Source of the DNA: a virus
Taxonomy: Duplodnaviria > Heunggongvirae > Uroviricota > Caudoviricetes
DNA: 34,113 nt
Reading direction: 5' to 3' (one strand)
IMG/VR virus record: IMGVR_UViG_2778261575_000003
The position numbers and the translations under genes are program-made. The notes beneath the pieces were generated by a model that was not told the origin of the DNA, did no database searches, and saw only the letters and a program-made list of their open reading frames with translations. Numbering within the stretch: position 1 is the first letter of the stretch; every line of letters starts with the position of its first letter. Below are positions 4,773-18,559 of this stretch, piece after piece.

Positions 4773-4827
4773 AACGGCGGCAGAGCAGTCACGGAGTAAA
4801 ACTGATACCGCCAAACGTCACCAGAAA
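4773..4827 (-). ncRNA. dicF: DicF small regulatory RNA (ftsZ-targeting sRNA)
   Basis: Reverse complement of 4776-4827 reads TTTCTGGTGACGTTTGGCGGTATCAGTTTTACTCCGTGACTGCTCTGCCGCC followed by a U-run, matching the recollected 53-nt DicF; correct position upstream of dicB. Confidence 0.85.
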
Positions 4828-6724: not shown

Positions 6725-7229
6725 ACAGGCTCGTGAGGCTCTGGATGCCTGGATATGTCGACCAGGAATGACACAGGAGCAGGCGACGATATTAATCACT
6801 GAAGCATTCTGGGCTTTGAAAGAGCGCCCGAACATCGATGTTCAGCGTGTCACAGATGAAGGTGGCGCGGTTGATCAGCGAGCGCTTGGCGTTAATCGAG
6901 TGAAGATATTCGAACGCTGGAAGGCTATCGACACCAGGGATAAGCGTGAAAAGTTCACGGCGCTAGTGCCTGCAATTATGGAGGCTATCCGGATTAATGA
7001 TTTCAGGTTGTATCGTGAAATTAGTGACGGAAAAAGCATCACGTACATGATCGCCGGGTTAAACAAAGAATATGGCGATGTGGTGGAGTCCGGACTGCTT
7101 TTTGCTGATCCTGCCGTAGTGGATCGTGAAACTGACGAACTTATAGAAAAAGCAATTGCTTTCAAACTTGCGTATCGACAGCAATACCAACAAAAAGCTG
7201 GATGGAATTATGAGCCTTCTTTTTGCTGA
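6708..7229 (+). CDS. Hypothetical protein (position of cII / YdaT-like regulator downstream of cro)
   Basis: 173-aa ORF overlapping the dicC-like stop; no motif recognised with confidence. Confidence 0.5.
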   Translation: MKITPEQAREALDAWICRPGMTQEQATILITEAFWALKERPNIDVQRVTDEGGAVDQRALGVNRVKIFERWKAIDTRDKREKFTALVPAIMEAIRINDFRLYREISDGKSITYMIAGLNKEYGDVVESGLLFADPAVVDRETDELIEKAIAFKLAYRQQYQQKAGWNYEPSFC

Positions 7230-8175
7230 ACGCCCACTGGTTATAAACACACAGCTTGCGATGAAGATTGGCTTAAATGAAGCCATTGTGTTGCAGCAGT
7301 TGCATTACTGGTTGAGAGATACCAATTCCGGCATGGAATGTGATGGTGTTCGCTGGATTTACAACACAACGGAACAATGGCTGGAACAGTTCCCATTCTG
7401 GTCAGAGTCAACGTTAAAGCGCGCGTTTGCAAGTCTGAAAACGCTGGGGCTTTTGCGTTGTGAAAAGCTCAATAAATCAAAGCGCGATATGACCAATTTC
7501 TACACGATTAACTATGGGAGCGAGCTTTTAGATGATGGCAAATTGAGCGAATCCATCAGTTCAAAATGCGCCGCTCCATCAGGTCAAAATGACACGATGG
7601 AAGAGGTCAAAATGAAACGCTCCATTGGTTCAAAACGACCCAATGTCATCGGGTCAAAATGGCCTGATGATCTTACAGAGAATACAACAGAGATTACTAC
7701 AGAGAATAAAAACACTTTTCGTCCGGAAGCTTCGCAACCGGACCCGCAGACGACTGAACAGGATTTTTTAACCCGGAACCCCGACGCGGTTGTGTTTAGT
7801 GTGAAAAAACGCCAGTGGGGTAGCAGGGAGGATTTGGCGTGTGCGCAGTGGATTTGGGGGCGGATCGTGAACCTTTACGAACAGGCTGCCAGCGACGATG
7901 GAGAGATCATGCGACCAAAAGAGCCTAACTGGACAGCCTGGGCCAATGACGTGCGCACAATGCGGATGCTGGATGGCAGAAGCCACAGACAAATTTGCGA
8001 AATGTTTGGTCGGGTACAGCGGGATCCATTCTGGGTAAAAAACATCATGAGCCCGTCAAAACTCCGCGAAAAATGGGACGAACTGGTCATCCGCCTGGGA
8101 CGTTCACCTGTACAGCGTTGTGTGAATCATATTTCTGAACCGGATACAGAAATTCCGCCTGGTTTCAGAGGATAA
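7210..8175 (+). CDS. Replication organizer protein (phage O-like N-terminal HTH, DnaT-like C-terminal domain)
   Basis: 321 aa from ATG 7210 (ORF track start 7156 is TTG). N-terminus LVINTQLAMKIGLNEAIVLQQLHYWL and C-terminus NWTAWANDVRTMRMLDGRSHRQICEMFGRV... are typical of lambdoid replication initiation proteins. Confidence 0.65.
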   Translation: MSLLFAERPLVINTQLAMKIGLNEAIVLQQLHYWLRDTNSGMECDGVRWIYNTTEQWLEQFPFWSESTLKRAFASLKTLGLLRCEKLNKSKRDMTNFYTINYGSELLDDGKLSESISSKCAAPSGQNDTMEEVKMKRSIGSKRPNVIGSKWPDDLTENTTEITTENKNTFRPEASQPDPQTTEQDFLTRNPDAVVFSVKKRQWGSREDLACAQWIWGRIVNLYEQAASDDGEIMRPKEPNWTAWANDVRTMRMLDGRSHRQICEMFGRVQRDPFWVKNIMSPSKLREKWDELVIRLGRSPVQRCVNHISEPDTEIPPGFRG

Positions 8176-8215: not shown

Positions 8216-8644
8216 GTGGCAAAAGTTTTTACACAAGAAGAGCGGGAAAAAATTAAAGGGCAGGTGGTGGAACTCGTGCGCCAGAGCGGTCGTGAGACGT
8301 TACGGCAACTGGAAGCTAAAACAGGTGCGACAAGATATCTGATGAGCGTTCTTGCCAGAGAGCTGGTTGCCAGTGGCGATGTATACAACTCTGGTTACGG
8401 GTTATTCCCGTCTGAACAGGCCCGTAAGGACTGGCAAAACGCCCGCAAAAAACTCTCGAGGGCAAAGGTGAAGAAACCCGCTGCGGTTGATCCAGACCTT
8501 ATCTGGTCATTAGCTGACGGAGAAATACGTCGTTACGACAGACATCATAATATAATTTGTAGTGAGTGCCGTAAAAGCGAAGTTATGCAGCGTATATTGT
8601 TTTTTTATCAGGGAAATGTTCGATATTTATTGAAGTATCAATAA
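8216..8644 (+). CDS. Hypothetical protein, possible winged-helix regulator; 3' end AT-rich
   Basis: 142 aa, GTG start 4 nt after an AAGGGGG RBS. Last ~35 codons switch to AT-rich codons (…NIICSECRKSEVMQRILFFYQGNVRYLLKYQ), suggesting the native 3' end was replaced at an insertion junction. Confidence 0.5.
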   Translation: MAKVFTQEEREKIKGQVVELVRQSGRETLRQLEAKTGATRYLMSVLARELVASGDVYNSGYGLFPSEQARKDWQNARKKLSRAKVKKPAAVDPDLIWSLADGEIRRYDRHHNIICSECRKSEVMQRILFFYQGNVRYLLKYQ

Positions 8645-11300
8645 CCTATTTAAACATTCCTTAAACTCAGAGTAGACTGGGTTAACAATCTGTTTCAATT
8701 GCAAATTGACAATCTATAGCCAGCGCGACGGGAGTGTTCATGTTTAGTCAGGTTGACATCGGTAGTTTCGGTAGTTTTACGGACCTCAGTTGGAAAAATA
8801 GCCTTAAGGATGCAGGTAACAATGTCCAGAATTTCAAGAGGCTTAACATCCTCTACGGACGGAACTACTCTGGTAAAACTACACTCTCACGAATTTTCCG
8901 CGCTTTGGAAACGGGGCGCATTCCACATAACTACGTGGACCCAAATTTTACTATTCGTGGTGACAAAGGTGATGTGACACAGGTAGGTCTTGCTGGTCAT
9001 GGCTACGATGTTCGCGTCTACAACCGGGATTTTGTGAGCGATAACCTAAACTTCTTGGTCAATCAGACCGACGGCGAGATCAAGACGTTTGCTATCGTTG
9101 GTGAAAAGAATAAAGAAATCGAAGATGCCATTACCGCAATTCAAACTAGGTTAGGCAGTGTTGAATCGAAGGCGGGTCTCCGACATGAGCTTGAAGCTAA
9201 AAAGAAAGAGCGAGATCGAACCAAAGACAATCATAAAACTGCGTCTGATGCTCTAGAGGGCAAACTTCGTTCTCATGCTAACAATAAGATTAAACAGAAT
9301 CGCATCTACGGCCCTGCTGTCTACAACATAGAAAGCATCAAAAAAGACATTGGTTTAGTCAAAAAACCTGGCTTCAGGGCTCTGACAACCGAAGAACAAG
9401 CAGCCAAGGTCAATCTCTTGAAGCAAGAGGCCTTGCCTGATATTAACGATACCGTATCGATAAACCTCAACATCGAATCAATAAGCAAAGAAGCTGAAGA
9501 ACTCCTTTTAAGATTGATTGAGCCTACCCTGCCAATTCAGGAGTTGTTGAATGAGACGGCTCTCCAGATGTGGGTGAAGGAAGGTATACCGCTGCACAAA
9601 GATAAGCGGGACACTTGCGCATTCTGTCGTCAGAATCTTCCTCATGATATCTGGCAGGTATTAGGCTCTCACTTCAGTAAGGAATCCTCGGCTCTGGAGT
9701 CAAGTATCGATTCATGTCTGACTTCTATCACCACCGAAATCCAAGCCATTCCTAACTTCTTGACTTTGACTGGCGATAAATTCTACGCAGAAGAGAAAAT
9801 ATTATTTGAAAACAGCAAGATAGAACTTTCTGAACATCTGAAAGACTACATGCAGGACCTCAAAGCTCTGCAGGCGGCGTTGGATAAGAGAAAGAACGCT
9901 ATTTTTCAGCAGGTTCTCATGCCTGTCTATATTCATAATCCGACAGCAATTCAGCAATGTGTGGGCGACATCAATGCTCTGATCGTCAAAAATAATGACC
10001 GCACAATTTCGCTGGAGAACGATAAAAGCACTGCACGAGAATCTCTCCGGCTTACCGATGTGGCGTCTTTTATCGCAGACATCACCTACGATAATGAATT
10101 CGCCCGTATTGCCAGTCTTAAGTCAGATGCTAACACAGCCAACACTGCCTTTACCGAAACTGAAGCTGAAATTTTTGAACAAGAAACCGAAGTGACCCGT
10201 TTACAGGGGCAGCAGAAGGATGAACGCAAGGGCGCGGAGCGAGTCAATGAGTTGCTCAGCCACTTTTTTGGTCATGACGGCATCGAACTTGAAGCAAAAG
10301 ACAATGTTGAGAATACTTCGGTTAAGTTTGAAGTCACCAGAGATGGCAAATCAGCCTACAACTTGAGCGAAGGAGAATGCAGCCTGATTGCTTTCTGCTA
10401 CTTCATGGCCAAGTTGGAAGAGCCTGAAAGCAAAGGTAAGGATCTGATCATTTATATAGATGACCCGATTTCCAGTCTTGACGGAAATCACATTTTCTTC
10501 ATGTTCAGCTTGATTGAAAGCCTGATTGCGAAACCCATTAAGAATTTAGATGGAACAAACAGCTATCGCTATAAGCAGCTTTTTATATCCACCCACAACC
10601 TAGATTTCTTGAAATATCTGAAGAAAATATCACTTCCTAATGAAAGGAATCATGGTGGATGCCAACATTTAATCGTTGAGAGAAATGGAGGGGCAAGTCA
10701 GATTTCCCTGATGCCTTCATATTTGCGAGACTACATCACTGAATTCAACTACCTGTTTCATCAGATTTACAAGTGCCGTAATCAAGTTGGAGCGAATGAA
10801 TCTCATGAACCATACTATGGATTCGGTAACAACCTCCGCAAGTTCCTTGAGGCATTTCTGTTCTTTAAGTTCCCGCACCATGATGACAAGAACGATGCCT
10901 TTGAACGGATCAAGAAATTCTTTGGCGAAGAGGATTCAACAGCGATAGCTCTTGTGAATAGACTTAACAACGAGTTTTCACATCTCGAATCAATTCCTGA
11001 TCGCGGATTCAAACCTGTGGAGATTCCAGAAATTTCCAAGGTAGCCAACTACGTGTTAGACAAGATTTATGCGTCAGATCCGCATCAATACAATTCCTTG
11101 TTAAAAAGCATTGGCGAACCACCAAGGTTATCTTAGGAAAAAGAGTATTAAGAGTTTTTTACGGTAAGCGAGGTGCTATTCGGATCTGGAATGCACCTCT
11201 CAAACACACCGGATGAGCACTCAATGATGTACGGACAATCGGAACACTCAAAAGAGAGTGGAGCTAAACAGGTATGAATAGTAAATGTCCGCTTCTCGCT
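8530..11300. other. AT-rich accessory insertion (defence moron) within the prophage early region
   Basis: Visibly lower GC and AT-rich codon choice compared with flanking phage genes; contains a single large gene (8740..11136). Confidence 0.6.
8740..11136 (+). CDS. AAA_13-family ATPase with coiled-coil/CxxC insert and C-terminal nuclease-like domain (RloC/PrrC-like anticodon nuclease candidate)
   Basis: 798 aa from ATG 8740 (GGAG 5 nt upstream). Walker A LYGRNYSGKTTLSRI, long charged coiled-coil insert with CAFCRQ, Walker B DLIIYIDDPISSLD, FISTHN, then a ~200-aa C-terminal domain with NNLRKFLEAF...PHH (R-x3-E...H). Confidence 0.75.
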   Translation: MFSQVDIGSFGSFTDLSWKNSLKDAGNNVQNFKRLNILYGRNYSGKTTLSRIFRALETGRIPHNYVDPNFTIRGDKGDVTQVGLAGHGYDVRVYNRDFVSDNLNFLVNQTDGEIKTFAIVGEKNKEIEDAITAIQTRLGSVESKAGLRHELEAKKKERDRTKDNHKTASDALEGKLRSHANNKIKQNRIYGPAVYNIESIKKDIGLVKKPGFRALTTEEQAAKVNLLKQEALPDINDTVSINLNIESISKEAEELLLRLIEPTLPIQELLNETALQMWVKEGIPLHKDKRDTCAFCRQNLPHDIWQVLGSHFSKESSALESSIDSCLTSITTEIQAIPNFLTLTGDKFYAEEKILFENSKIELSEHLKDYMQDLKALQAALDKRKNAIFQQVLMPVYIHNPTAIQQCVGDINALIVKNNDRTISLENDKSTARESLRLTDVASFIADITYDNEFARIASLKSDANTANTAFTETEAEIFEQETEVTRLQGQQKDERKGAERVNELLSHFFGHDGIELEAKDNVENTSVKFEVTRDGKSAYNLSEGECSLIAFCYFMAKLEEPESKGKDLIIYIDDPISSLDGNHIFFMFSLIESLIAKPIKNLDGTNSYRYKQLFISTHNLDFLKYLKKISLPNERNHGGCQHLIVERNGGASQISLMPSYLRDYITEFNYLFHQIYKCRNQVGANESHEPYYGFGNNLRKFLEAFLFFKFPHHDDKNDAFERIKKFFGEEDSTAIALVNRLNNEFSHLESIPDRGFKPVEIPEISKVANYVLDKIYASDPHQYNSLLKSIGEPPRLS

Positions 11301-11493
11301 AAATAAAAGCGGACTAGAAGGTTAGCTTGCATCGGACTTTGCATATTTAAAGAAGTGCTGGTGGTGACTGGTTGCTGTTTTTCATTTCCACAGAACAAAA
11401 TCAGAGAAACTATATCTAATAGTTGCATTGAATCACTGACGAGACAGCCTCATATTTATCAGGACTGGTGTACGTCCAATACAGGAGGTTGTG

Positions 11494-11583
11494 GTGCTGG
11501 TTCTCAAATGTGCGCTGGCTATTGCGGCTGTAATGGCGATTTATTTTCTTGCCATTGTTCTTATGGATCGCCTTTCTGACTGA
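11494..11583 (+). CDS. Candidate small hydrophobic membrane peptide (type I toxin-like)
   Basis: 29-codon ORF (V)LVLKCALAIAAVMAIYFLAIVLMDRLSD starting at GTG 11494 (in-frame GTG also at 11491), 5 nt after a consensus AGGAGG (11483-11488). Below the ORF-track size cutoff. Confidence 0.35.
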   Translation: MLVLKCALAIAAVMAIYFLAIVLMDRLSD

Positions 11584-11794
11584 TTGCATATTGGCGAGGT
11601 AACGGGAGTTAAGTAGAATGCCTGCGGGTGCTTGAGGCTATCTGCCTCGGGCATGAACACCAAAGGCAGATAGAGAAAAGCCCCAGTTAACATTACGCGT
11701 CCTGCAAGACGCTTAACATTAATCTGAGGCTCAATCTATGCTGAACACATGTAGGTTAGCCTCTTACGTGCCGAAAGGCAAGGAGAAGCAGGCT

Positions 11795-11950
11795 ATGAAG
11801 CAGCAAAAGGCGATGTTAATCGCCCTGATCGTCATCTGTTTAACCGTCATAGTGACGGCACTGGTAACGAGGAAAGACCTCTGCGAGGTACGAATCCGAA
11901 CCGGCCAGACGGAGGTCGCTGTCTTCACAGCTTACGAACCTGAGGAGTAA
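11795..11950 (+). CDS. hokD: Hok-family type I toxin (HokD/RelF-like)
   Basis: 51 aa MKQQKAMLIALIVICLTVIVTALVTRKDLCEVRIRTGQTEVAVFTAYEPEE from ATG 11795 with AAGGAGAAG RBS. An in-frame upstream ATG at 11738 gives a 70-aa mok-like extension. Leader hairpins follow, then a terminator. Confidence 0.9.
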   Translation: MKQQKAMLIALIVICLTVIVTALVTRKDLCEVRIRTGQTEVAVFTAYEPEE

Positions 11951-12020
11951 GAGACCCGGCGAGGGAGAAATCCCTCGCCACCTCTGATGTGGCAGGCATC
12001 CTCAACGCACCCGCACTTAA

Positions 12021-12046
12021 CCCGCTTCGGCGGGTTTTTGTTTTTA
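12021..12046 (+). terminator. Rho-independent terminator after hok
   Basis: CCCGC-TTCG-GCGGG hairpin followed by a T-run. Confidence 0.75.
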
Positions 12047-12166
12047 TTTTCAACGCGTTTGAAGTTCTGGACGGTGCCGGAATAGAATCAAAAATACTTA
12101 AGTAGCGCGCAGGGATAAGAGGGATGGTCCCTTAAAGGGGAGAGCTAATTATCCGGAAGGATTCTG

Positions 12167-12418
12167 ATGATGAACATCGAAGAACTGCGTAAAATTTTTT
12201 GTGAAGATGGCCTCTATGCTGTGTGCGTTGAAAATGGAAATCTTGTTAGTCATTACCGCATTATGTGTTTGCGAAAGAATGGGGCTGCGTTAATTAATTT
12301 TGTGGATGGTCGAGTGACAGACGGATTTATCTTGCGCGAAGGTGAGTTTGTCACTTCATTACAGGCACTGAAAGAGATCGGAATAAAAGCAGGCTTTTCA
12401 GCTTTTGCAGAAGAATAA
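12167..12418 (+). CDS. Rem-like small protein (hypothetical)
   Basis: 83-aa ORF with GGAAGGA RBS; same size and position (after hok) as Qin rem. Function unknown. Confidence 0.55.
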   Translation: MMNIEELRKIFCEDGLYAVCVENGNLVSHYRIMCLRKNGAALINFVDGRVTDGFILREGEFVTSLQALKEIGIKAGFSAFAEE

Positions 12419-14712: not shown

Positions 14713-15255
14713 TGCTTTAAATGGGGCAATAGAGATATTGAATCTCATCCCGGGATAAACATTGGGAGTTGAAGGTCCACGCGAACCATTTATCCGGCAA
14801 AATTCCACGCGTAATCCTGTGGTAATTTCTTCTGCATCTCGAAGATTGAGAGCTGAAACGTGAAGCTGGGCATCGATACGCCATCGGATGGGAATATAAG
14901 ACCTTTGCTGCTTTTGTAGTCAAAGTTTTTGACAATTCCTGTCATTTTAGGGGACAGAAAAACTCCTTAATACTGATAACCTGGTGCACCATACACACGT
15001 TCCTGGAGAAAACTACTTTGTTGATAGGGTTTAAGGTGGCTGGATGTCTAAAATAAACATTGCTTCATATGTTCAACTATGAGTTAATGACTGCGTCGGT
15101 TTGAAGAACAGACGATATACGAAGTAGTTTACTAAAGCAGTTCTCATTTCAGGTGTTATTCACTTATTCCTTCTTTGAGTCTCTCCAATTAAGTACGAAG
15201 TCGTTTCTGTTATGCAAACCATTTATGCCGAAAGGCTCAAGTTAAGGAATGTAGA

Positions 15256-15471
15256 ATGTCAAATAAAATGACTGGTTTAGTAAAATGGTTTAACGCTGAT
15301 AAAGGTTTCGGCTTTATTTCTCCTGTTGATGGTAGTAAAGATGTGTTTGTGCATTTTTCTGCGATTCAGAATGATAATTATCGAACCTTATTTGAAGGTC
15401 AAAAGGTTACCTTCTCTATAGAGAGTGGTGCTAAAGGTCCTGCAGCAGCAAATGTCATCATTACTGATTAA
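15256..15471 (+). CDS. cspB: Cold-shock protein, CspA family (CspB-like)
   Basis: 71 aa [38 protein letters not shown]... with RNP1/RNP2 motifs; long 5' UTR typical of csp genes. Confidence 0.9.
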
Positions 15472-15752
15472 AATTCATCGCTCGTCTGTATACGATAACG
15501 AAGAAGGCTGATGCCTGAGTAGAGATACGGACAGAGTAGTGAATATTGGATCTCTTTAATAAAAAGTAAGGAGGTCCAATACATGAAACAATGGCCAGCA
15601 TATTTGGCAAAATCTTAATCAGGAAAAGTATGCTAACCATTGTGGTGAAGTGCAGGTTTGCTGCATGAATAGTTTCACAGCAGAAGCTAACTGCTGGCAT
15701 CGCAAAACAAAGTGCGTAAGTGGATGACTCCCACAAAAAGCACCACAATCTC

Positions 15753-17780: not shown

Positions 17781-18142
17781 GGTAATATTAAATCGGAACA
17801 TTTACATCGCGGAATGTAAAATTTAAATAAAAAGGACTCTTCCATGAGCCAAAATTCCTGAAATCTTAAGGGTAAGATAAAAGGTCTTAATCAGAATGAC
17901 ACGTTTTATTAATAAATAAAGCTATTCTTTCATTGCTGTGTTTTTCTTTACAAAAGTAATCCTTGCTATGGGTGGTTAATCATGCGTTAATGGTGTTCTG
18001 GTTTGTTACAAATTTATCTGAAGCAGTCATTGTTATAATTTTATTATTTGTACCTCTTGAGATTTCCTTGTTGGTTTTTCTCTCTGATATTTTTTTTCGG
18101 ACCATTCTGCCCAAGGGCTAATTTCTTCAAAAGGTAATAATT

Positions 18143-18355
18143 ATGTCTAACAAAATGACTGGTTTAGTGAAATGGTTTAACCCTGAAAAAGGTTTTGGTT
18201 TCATCACGCCGAAAGATGGCAGCAAAGATGTGTTTGTCCATTTCTCAGCAATTCAGAGCAACGATTTCAAAACATTAACTGAGAATCAGGAAGTTGAATT
18301 TGGTATTGAGAACGGACCTAAAGGTCCTGCCGCTGTTCATGTAGTGGCGCTTTGA
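18143..18355 (+). CDS. cspI: Cold-shock protein, CspA family (CspI-like)
   Basis: 70 aa [45 protein letters not shown]...; long AT-rich 5' UTR (17790-18142). Confidence 0.9.
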
Positions 18356-18559
18356 GGTAGACAATATTACAAACCATATTCACTTTAGATGCCCGTGTTG
18401 TCATGGTTCCCAGTATAGAACATCATCTTTTGATGTTTCTGACATGAATCCTTTCGGGGCAAAATGTATCTTTTGTAAATCAATGATGATTACATTTGAT
18501 AATATTTCACAATACTTAAATGCCAGCCGTCTGTCGTTGGATTTAAAAAAGTGAAAATG

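Follow-up and report, generated by a model that had tools for sequence, protein, structure and literature searches.

The question raised by this locus is whether the hok gene downstream of an AAA_13 cargo gene in the window (the whole 34,113-nucleotide stretch analysed here) belongs to a complete, antisense-controlled system or corresponds to the rearranged hokD gene of Escherichia coli K-12. Very probably, positions 11591-12045 constitute a type I toxin-antitoxin module, a hok/mok/sok set of the hokD/hokW lineage with no part missing, among the early-right genes of a Qin-like lambdoid prophage. Nothing about the hok locus is new: it is an ordinary module whose nearest relative has been dissected experimentally. 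Annotators give only "hokD" here, and mok, Sok, and the mRNA ends now have coordinates.

The hok locus in its prophage setting

The sequence of the window is that of an E. coli prophage of the Qin-like lambdoid kind, and it starts with the integrase-side region. The AAA_13 gene reported upstream of hok by the first-pass annotation is present and intact, and the landmarks around the locus are:

4775-4826, minus strand: DicF
7156-8175, early-right, after cro and a ydaT-like gene: O-like gene
8216-8644, early-right: DUF977 (Ren-like) gene
8734..11136, plus strand: AAA_13 ATPase cargo gene, intact, 800 aa (PF13166, E 4e-152; PADLOC PDC-S06)
11306..11590, plus strand: conserved unannotated block 5' of hok (genome matches)
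11494-11583, within that block: ORF for a 29-aa membrane peptide
12167-12418, downstream of the hok locus: rem

The gene order after rem was ydfU (DUF968), the Q antiterminator, csp genes, lysis genes, and morphogenesis genes, and the hok module shares its orientation with the cro-O-DUF977-cargo-Q series of the early-right operon. Strain Z1323PEC0014 was 100% identical to the window over 8602-11650.

Two side observations concern the region upstream of hok, namely the 11306-11590 block with its 29-aa membrane-peptide ORF and the variable cargo slot adjoining it. 2,940 of 5,426 genomes matched at 80-93% identity, with matches that cover the block in most of them, and the 29-aa ORF, named "membrane protein" in some records, remained open in diverged copies. 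Two other reading frames were set aside: a 74-aa ORF (11355-11579) that has a 1-nt indel inside it in relatives, and a 54-aa minus-strand ORF (11264-11428) that extends beyond the conserved block. YdfW, a K-12 cargo protein, was unrelated to the 29-aa peptide.

Hok toxin, mok frame, and sense transcript

The coding frames and the signals of the sense transcript are:

11795..11950, plus strand: hok toxin gene, 51 aa (PF01848 match; annotated hokD in near-identical genomes)
11738..11950, plus strand: mok-type ORF, 70 aa, in frame with hok (ORF list; start alignment)
11726..11729, plus strand: mok Shine-Dalgarno (SD) sequence GAGG, 8 nt 5' of ATG 11738
11591..11619, plus strand: predicted hok mRNA promoter, -35 TTGGCG, 17-nt spacer, -10 TAGAAT (consensus scan, 9 of 12 matches)
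11626..12045, plus strand: predicted full-length hok mRNA of about 415-420 nt, beginning with tac and ending in the terminator U-tract (promoter, terminator, and fold)
11958..11979, plus strand: 3' stem-loop with a 9-bp stem, predicted protector of the processed (truncated) hok mRNA (full-length and truncated folds)
12019..12045, plus strand: intrinsic terminator of the hok mRNA, a 7-bp GC-rich stem (stem part 12019-12036) followed by TTTGTTTTT

The Hok-family toxin proposed by the first-pass annotation was recovered by Pfam (PF01848, E 1.2e-23; residues 6-47, all 42 model positions), which places the product in the Hok/Gef family of small single-pass membrane toxins. The protein is identical to K-12 HokD, and hokD of K-12 and of the near-identical strain ECCHD184 have the RefSeq accession WP_000813254.1 in common. 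Overexpression of the HokD peptide leads to toxicity (bioRxiv 10.1101/2025.08.07.668861). The hok SD is AGGAG, at 11781-11785.

The upstream in-frame start at 11738, earlier read as mok-type, shared an alignment column with the annotated mokC start when the locus was aligned with K-12 hokC and hokB, and the hok starts and stops of all three coincided. At 213 nt, the mok-type ORF also equals the annotated MokW-like CDS of phage VT2-Sakai in length. This overlapping frame has an SD of its own, and translational coupling of hok to it is predicted.

The promoter is of the sigma-70 type, and the start it implies, about 7 nt downstream, is the first base of the Rfam leader match described below. Its -10 was kept in four of five aligned hokD-type loci and read TAGGAT in the other, an O157 prophage copy. 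The hairpins that had been noted 3' of hok correspond to the 9-bp stem at 11958-11979, which showed one compensatory and two wobble changes among the five loci, and to the intrinsic terminator. At the sequence and in silico level, the module at 11591-12045 has its own promoter, predicted to give an mRNA of about 415 nt.

Leader structure and alternative folds

The leader and its regulatory boxes, as placed by Rfam and by folding, are:

11626..11800, plus strand: hok leader, Rfam RF01794 ("sok"), 115.6 bits, full model
11626..11637, plus strand: tac (translational activator element), GGGUGCUUGAGG (pairings in three folds)
11678..11684, plus strand: ucb or anti-SD, AAGCCCC (folds; partners are the mok SD or tac)
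11758-11763, plus strand: dcb, pairing with the mok SD in the truncated fold
12000..12012, plus strand: fbi (fold-back inhibition element), CCUCAACGCACCC, the complement of tac apart from one bulged C

The inverted repeats seen earlier in the leader proved to be part of a full-length match to the RF01794 covariance model (115.6 bits against a gathering score of 59, E 4e-27, model positions 1-157 of 157), and 11626-11800 thereby qualifies as a structured hok leader. The RF01794 model was built for the strand that carries hok, and what it marks here is therefore the leader and not the antisense RNA; we rejected its reading as a Sok on the plus strand, as sokC and sokB are annotated on the strand opposite to hok. 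A minus-strand "sok" match at 11571-11684 (19 bits), an isrK match (25.7 bits against a gathering score of 50), and matches to rsmX and ceN48 were all sub-threshold and were regarded as chance or terminator-like. The toxin, mok, leader, promoter, and terminator features are real, and chance falls far short of accounting for them.

Minimum free energy (MFE) folds were computed for three versions of the transcript. In the fold of the nascent leader (11626-11800), tac GGGUGCUUGAGGC was held in a local metastable hairpin with 11644-11654. In the full-length fold (11626-12040; MFE -176.4 kcal/mol, z -7.3 versus shuffles), the 5' 12 nt paired with CCUCAA(C)GCACCC at 12000-12012, that is, tac with fbi, and the anti-SD box around 11678-11684 sequestered the mok SD GAGG at 11726-11729. 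When the RNA was trimmed to 11985, just past the 11958-11979 hairpin (11626-11985), tac paired instead with ucb, AAGCCCC at 11678-11684, and the mok SD entered a GAGGCU/AGCCUC stem with 11758-11763, the SDmok/dcb pairing (z -7.0). The window folds reproduced in silico, as predicted structures, the three states published for hok mRNA, the folding pathway of plasmid R1 being summarised in PMC9841398.

Conservation was consistent with these helices. When five hokD-type loci were aligned, 93% of the cells in these helices were paired, versus 34-47% when the partners were slid, and four pairs were altered on both sides in a compensatory manner; the loci are few and closely related, and the structure was taken partly from the window's own fold, so that these figures serve as supporting evidence only. 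The tac/ucb helix was invariant across the five loci, and the BL21 fbi variant GCACUC preserved its pairing with tac as G-U.

The predicted Sok antisense RNA

A Sok-like antisense RNA over the leader and start region had been expected by the first-pass annotation, which could not place its ends; these can now be predicted:

11676..11746, minus strand: predicted Sok antisense RNA, about 71-77 nt (sokC/sokB mapping, fold, and sokW length)
11753..11781, minus strand: predicted sok promoter, -35 TTGCCT (11781..11776), 17-nt spacer, -10 TAACCT (11758..11753) (read off the minus strand; homology)

The annotated K-12 sokC and sokB mapped onto 11670-11746 of the window, opposite their hok genes. The predicted Sok folded with an unpaired 5' tail that spans the mok start, followed by a long hairpin and the U-run UUUUCU (z -5.9). 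sokW is reported to comprise 71 nt complementary to its leader (PMC8621323), and 71 nt counted from 11746 end at 11676 in the U-run; Sok is therefore predicted to extend from about 11746 to 11676 on the minus strand, with a few bases' leeway at each end.

The sok promoter was placed by homology and by a published mutagenesis primer. A promoter scanner called no promoter on the minus strand, because the -10 matches only three of six consensus positions. The promoter stretch is nevertheless identical in VT2-Sakai, and primer YO-421, which swaps TAGGTTA for CCGGCTC (plus strand) in the sokW promoter-less construct (PMC8621323), targets exactly the bases of the window's -10 TAACCT. That construct unmasked HokW toxicity (PMC8621323, Takada et al. 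2021). Judged from the nucleotides, a cis-antisense Sok with its own promoter and terminator hairpin is thus predicted opposite the mok start.

K-12 hokD as a truncated form

In the K-12 record, the Qin order is relB-relE-hokD-rem, as the first-pass annotation had stated, and hokD (relF) is the third gene of relBEF. K-12 and the window were 99.75% identical in DNA from 11781 through rem and have the downstream rem-ydfU-quuQ order in common. Everything 5' of 11781 is missing from K-12 hokD, including the promoter, tac, ucb, the mok start, Sok, and the sok promoter, whereas the hok SD, the ORF, fbi, and the terminator are kept; 71 nt separate the hok ATG from the relE stop upstream. K-12 hokD has been described as inactivated by rearrangement (PMC12214031), and the loss of the leader fits that description.

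No RelB- or RelE-like ORFs had been noticed in the window, and searches agreed: tblastn of the K-12 proteins against the whole window gave best E values of 0.38 (RelB) and 0.74 (RelE), with nothing significant in 11137-11790, and blastn with K-12 relBE DNA showed no similarity upstream of 11781. The window thus departs from a K-12-type relBEF arrangement on two counts, having no relBE upstream and a complete hok leader.

At least 80% of the intact module was found in 3,928 of 5,426 complete E. coli genomes, at a median of two and up to ten places per genome, and in 74 phage records; the relE-hokD junction occurred in 1,164 of the 5,426. Given these counts and homology that begins only at 11781, the window represents the common intact form, and K-12 a derived truncation in which another cargo block has replaced the whole hok leader, with its breakpoint at 11781. 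The first-pass annotation had called the hok locus "retained". This holds in that the intact module is present, but the wording understates the case, as the intact form is common and the K-12 junction derived. K-12, the usual reference, is a truncated minority form, and K-12-based expectations for hokD (no Sok, co-transcription with relBE) therefore fail for most E. coli.

A variable cargo slot between DUF977 and hok

The interval that runs from DUF977 rightwards to the 11306-12045 block was compared in 17 genomes or phages, a sample and not a census. About a dozen different contents were found between the conserved flanks:

This window: AAA_13 gene (PDC-S06)
ECCHD184: the same AAA_13 gene, split by IS3
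BL21(DE3): deletion fusing DUF977 to position 11471
DAX4: IS3
CFT073: four small ORFs
O157 prophage: DUF1627, fimbrial pseudogene, paa
EC16: DUF4209 protein, opposite strand
RM11911: 195-aa hypothetical protein
Phage HannyBb: methyltransferase and hypothetical protein
N1420: SIR2 protein
E700025: ABC-three-component system
GN06489: two hypothetical proteins
EC444: QueH
BroCaecum-55: NACHT protein
E2865 and MEI4O1-23: ISEsa1 fragment-ydfW-flxA-ydfV-relB-relE, from DUF977 to hokD

BL21(DE3) was rejected as an empty site, its deletion fusing DUF977 to the small-ORF region. E2865 and MEI4O1-23 carry a Qin less decayed than that of K-12, which additionally lacks the replication genes. In both, the relBE block lies in the DUF977-hokD interval, and relBE and AAA_13 are therefore alternative occupants of one slot, although their right-hand boundaries differ: the AAA_13 island ends at about 11306, and the relBE block at 11781, cutting into the hok leader. 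The interval is thus a variable cargo slot, which upholds the earlier suggestion of an exchange hotspot, and the AAA_13 (PDC-S06) gene is independent cargo within it.

Several occupants resembled defence genes. Against PADLOC, the AAA_13 gene matched candidate PDC-S06 over its full length (1066.9 bits), its arrangement being rare (18 of 5,426 genomes), and the DUF4209 protein and a DUF2326 protein gave strong matches to PDC-S39 and PDC-M68B, all three being candidates and not validated systems. The SIR2 match was weak, the NACHT protein had no PADLOC family, and five cargo proteins had no match. In a recent survey, hok showed no enrichment in the 20 kb around DefenseFinder systems (12% versus 9.4% at random). 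A defence hotspot is plausible but not established.

A search for literature on this specific DUF977-hokD slot found none, only the general concept of phage-borne hotspots. We tentatively suggest, as one possibility among others, that the stretch from DUF977 to the anchor (the 29-aa gene plus hok/sok) is an uncatalogued, highly variable slot in lambdoid prophages of the Qin/Rac type, that it abounds in candidate defence genes (PDC-S06, PDC-S39, PDC-M68B, SIR2, NACHT, and relBE), and that the anchor may be more than a marker of the site. If so, the cargo could be stabilised or insulated by the anchor, or a toxin or immunity factor could have gone unrecognised in the small peptide. The DUF977-hokD interval also offers a handy conserved-flank slot for collecting candidate prophage-borne defence genes.

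Proposed mechanism, role, and alternatives

The folds suggest the following course of events. During transcription, the 5' tac would be kept in its local hairpin; in the full-length mRNA, closure of tac on fbi, together with ucb over the mok ribosome-binding site, would leave an inert RNA. Trimming of the 3' end back to the 11958-11979 hairpin would let tac switch partner to ucb, the mok SD moving into the SDmok/dcb stem, and translation of mok from 11738, in frame with hok, could then drive hok translation. By near-identity to hokW-sokW and homology to R1, an unstable Sok of about 71 nt would be made from TTGCCT-17-TAACCT on the minus strand and would anneal to the trimmed mRNA around the mok start, leading to RNase III decay, so that Hok would be made only when the Sok supply fails. 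That Sok is unstable, that RNase III cleaves the duplex, that the mRNA undergoes 3' exonucleolytic processing, and that loss of Sok kills was shown for the 95%-identical hokW-sokW (PMC8621323).

The role of the module is most likely that in Sp5, with no activity in the lysogen and activation once the prophage is induced, a role we extrapolate from an element whose module sits elsewhere in the phage genome. Upon induction, Sok synthesis would fall and sense transcription would read through or rise, and the Hok then made could speed membrane damage, help lysis, and increase phage release. Prophage stabilisation and abortive infection are possible secondary roles.

Two other readings of the locus were weighed. 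The module could be a relic, structurally complete yet, like the K-12 chromosomal hok loci, devoid of killing-level expression or current function. Chromosomal hok/sok loci gave no post-segregational killing in past tests, as cited in bioRxiv 10.1101/2025.08.07.668861, and K-12 hokA, C, D, and E are inactivated (bioRxiv 10.1101/2025.08.07.668861; PMC12214031); the sok -10 is weak, and up to ten copies per genome are what would be expected of passively carried prophage DNA. The lesions of the K-12 loci are, however, absent from this one, which has no IS element, leader truncation, or frameshift. Every regulatory box is kept, changes between variants are compensatory, a 95%-identical locus is functional in Sp5, and the module is found in free phages too. 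We consider a relic improbable, and a purely vestigial state unlikely given the intact elements.

It is less probable still, indeed hardly credible, that hok is the distal gene of an upstream operon, comparable to relF in K-12 relBEF, and forms a two-gene defence unit with AAA_13 instead of an autonomous antisense-controlled module. In favour of this reading, the two genes share their orientation, no plus-strand terminator was called in 11136-11590 except a weak hairpin at 11518-11537, and co-transcription of hok with the genes before it has a precedent in K-12. Against it, hok comes with a promoter and an entire leader of its own, and the module occurs in 3,928 genomes as opposed to 18 for the AAA_13 arrangement. 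Between the AAA_13 gene and hok lies a conserved block of 285 bp in which there is a separate small ORF, PDC-S06 is a single-gene PADLOC candidate, and the published survey found no enrichment of hok near known defence systems.

Comparison with known hok/sok systems

The closest known system to the complete module proposed here is hokW-sokW of the Stx2 prophage Sp5 (phage VT2-Sakai), with 94.7% DNA identity over 11606-12022. The VT2-Sakai locus has the same 70-codon Mok-type ORF in frame, the same tac and fbi, and a sok promoter region and -10 identical to those of the window, and its host element is likewise a lambdoid prophage. hokW-sokW is a functional type I toxin-antitoxin system dependent on RNase III and Hfq; its activation after mitomycin C is RecA-dependent, and it raises Sp5 release about twofold (PMC8621323). 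HokW differs from the window Hok at 4 of 51 residues, in the C-terminal tail, and three substitutions distinguish VT2-Sakai from the window in the Sok/target region, which corresponds to the functional sokW fragment that was cloned. The GC hairpin terminator at the end of the window's module is absent from Sp5, whose own module lies among early-left accessory genes, and that of the window between the replication genes and Q.

The mechanistic prototype, hok/sok (parB) of plasmid R1, has the same elements (tac, metastable hairpin, ucb, SDmok, dcb, fbi, 3' processing hairpin, and cis-antisense Sok), the same predicted folding pathway, and the same Pfam and Rfam families. R1 Hok is distant in sequence, with HokW reported to be 44% identical to it (PMC8621323), and the window differs from R1 in that its mok is in frame with hok. 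The R1 element is a plasmid and that of the window a prophage, and plasmid-type post-segregational killing is therefore not an obvious role here.

With the hokC/mokC/sokC and hokB/mokB/sokB loci of K-12, the leader, the mok start, and the Sok positions aligned column for column, at a mean column identity of about 67% over the alignment, and K-12 mokC is likewise in frame with hokC. The Sok hairpin of the window is about 20 nt longer than those of hokC and hokB. These K-12 loci occupy fixed chromosomal sites, with IS186 adjoining hokC, whereas the module of the window resides in a prophage.

A conserved block and small ORF between the AAA_13 island and hok

The AAA_13 island, the cargo lying between the DUF977 gene and hok, had a hairpin at its right edge, where similarity to other prophages restarts, and a conserved, unannotated block was observed between this edge and the hok/mok/sok module.

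Features between the AAA_13 gene and the hok module
11287-11314: 10-bp hairpin, GTCCGCTTCTCGCTAAATAAAAGCGGAC, scored as a minus-strand terminator
11306-11590: conserved unannotated block, directly upstream of the hok promoter
11494-11583, plus strand: 29-aa hydrophobic ORF, MLVLKCALAIAAVMAIYFLAIVLMDRLSD, with a GGAGG Shine-Dalgarno sequence and a GTG start

Other genomes had a related hairpin at this island boundary, in which the left arm varied. The upstream query matched 2,940 of the 5,426 complete E. coli genomes, mostly through the block, at 80-93% identity. The 29-aa ORF, which is named 'membrane protein' in a few records, has a possible promoter (TTGAAT-17-CATATT) near 11429-11457, and its reading frame was kept open in diverged copies, one of which had an ATG start and an in-frame 3-nt deletion, while another, at ~80% identity, differed in its C-terminus. 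Phages Tritos, Evi, mEp460, and HannyBb also carried the small ORF, which can occur without hok, as in comparison locus L020. A deletion in the BL21(DE3) prophage (L003, 4704-5063) fuses DUF977 at codon ~100 to the equivalent of window position 11471, so that the C-terminus of DUF977 becomes chimeric and runs over the small ORF's start.

Within the island, the AAA_13 ATPase (8734-11136) was matched over its full length by the PADLOC candidate PDC-S06 (1066.9 bits). Residues 500-631 showed weaker similarity to PrrC, and the middle region contained a CAFC motif. This arrangement was rare (18/5,426 genomes), and in strain ECCHD184 the gene was interrupted by an IS3 element.

The mok, hok, and 3' UTR sequences

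The mok frame differed between close variants, as seen by comparing the window (11738-11797) with CFT073 (L007, 5133-5192). The window, Sp5, and an O157 copy all had mok and hok in a single frame, whereas the mok ORF of CFT073 had 19 codons and a TGA stop that overlaps the hok ATG (ATGA). These differences suggest that translation across the mok region counts for more than the sequence of the Mok protein.

Within hok, the Tyr47 codon was UAC in a UACG context (11933-11936), which is the site where low-level (6%) A-to-I editing by TadA, changing Tyr to Cys, has been reported for K-12 hokD mRNA (PMC12214031). The hok 3' UTR (11959-12040) resembled Salmonella isrK, but its score of 25.7 bits (E 0.006) fell below the threshold of 50, and the match was probably driven by the two hairpins plus the terminator.

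Additional RNA elements identified in the window were part of the same prophage as the hok locus.

Other RNA elements of the prophage
4775-4826, minus strand: DicF sRNA (72.5 bits)
15095-15487, plus strand: cspA-type thermoregulator 5' UTR (158.8 bits)
17997-18382, plus strand: cspA-type thermoregulator 5' UTR (112.8 bits)

Comparison with Sp5/VT2-Sakai

Sp5/VT2-Sakai carried a near-identical hok/sok module (L011, 3098-3514), but this copy lacked the terminal hairpin terminator and was located among early-left accessory genes (ead/Ea22-like, DUF551) rather than between the replication genes and Q. This differing location indicates that the module itself moves between positions in lambdoid genomes.
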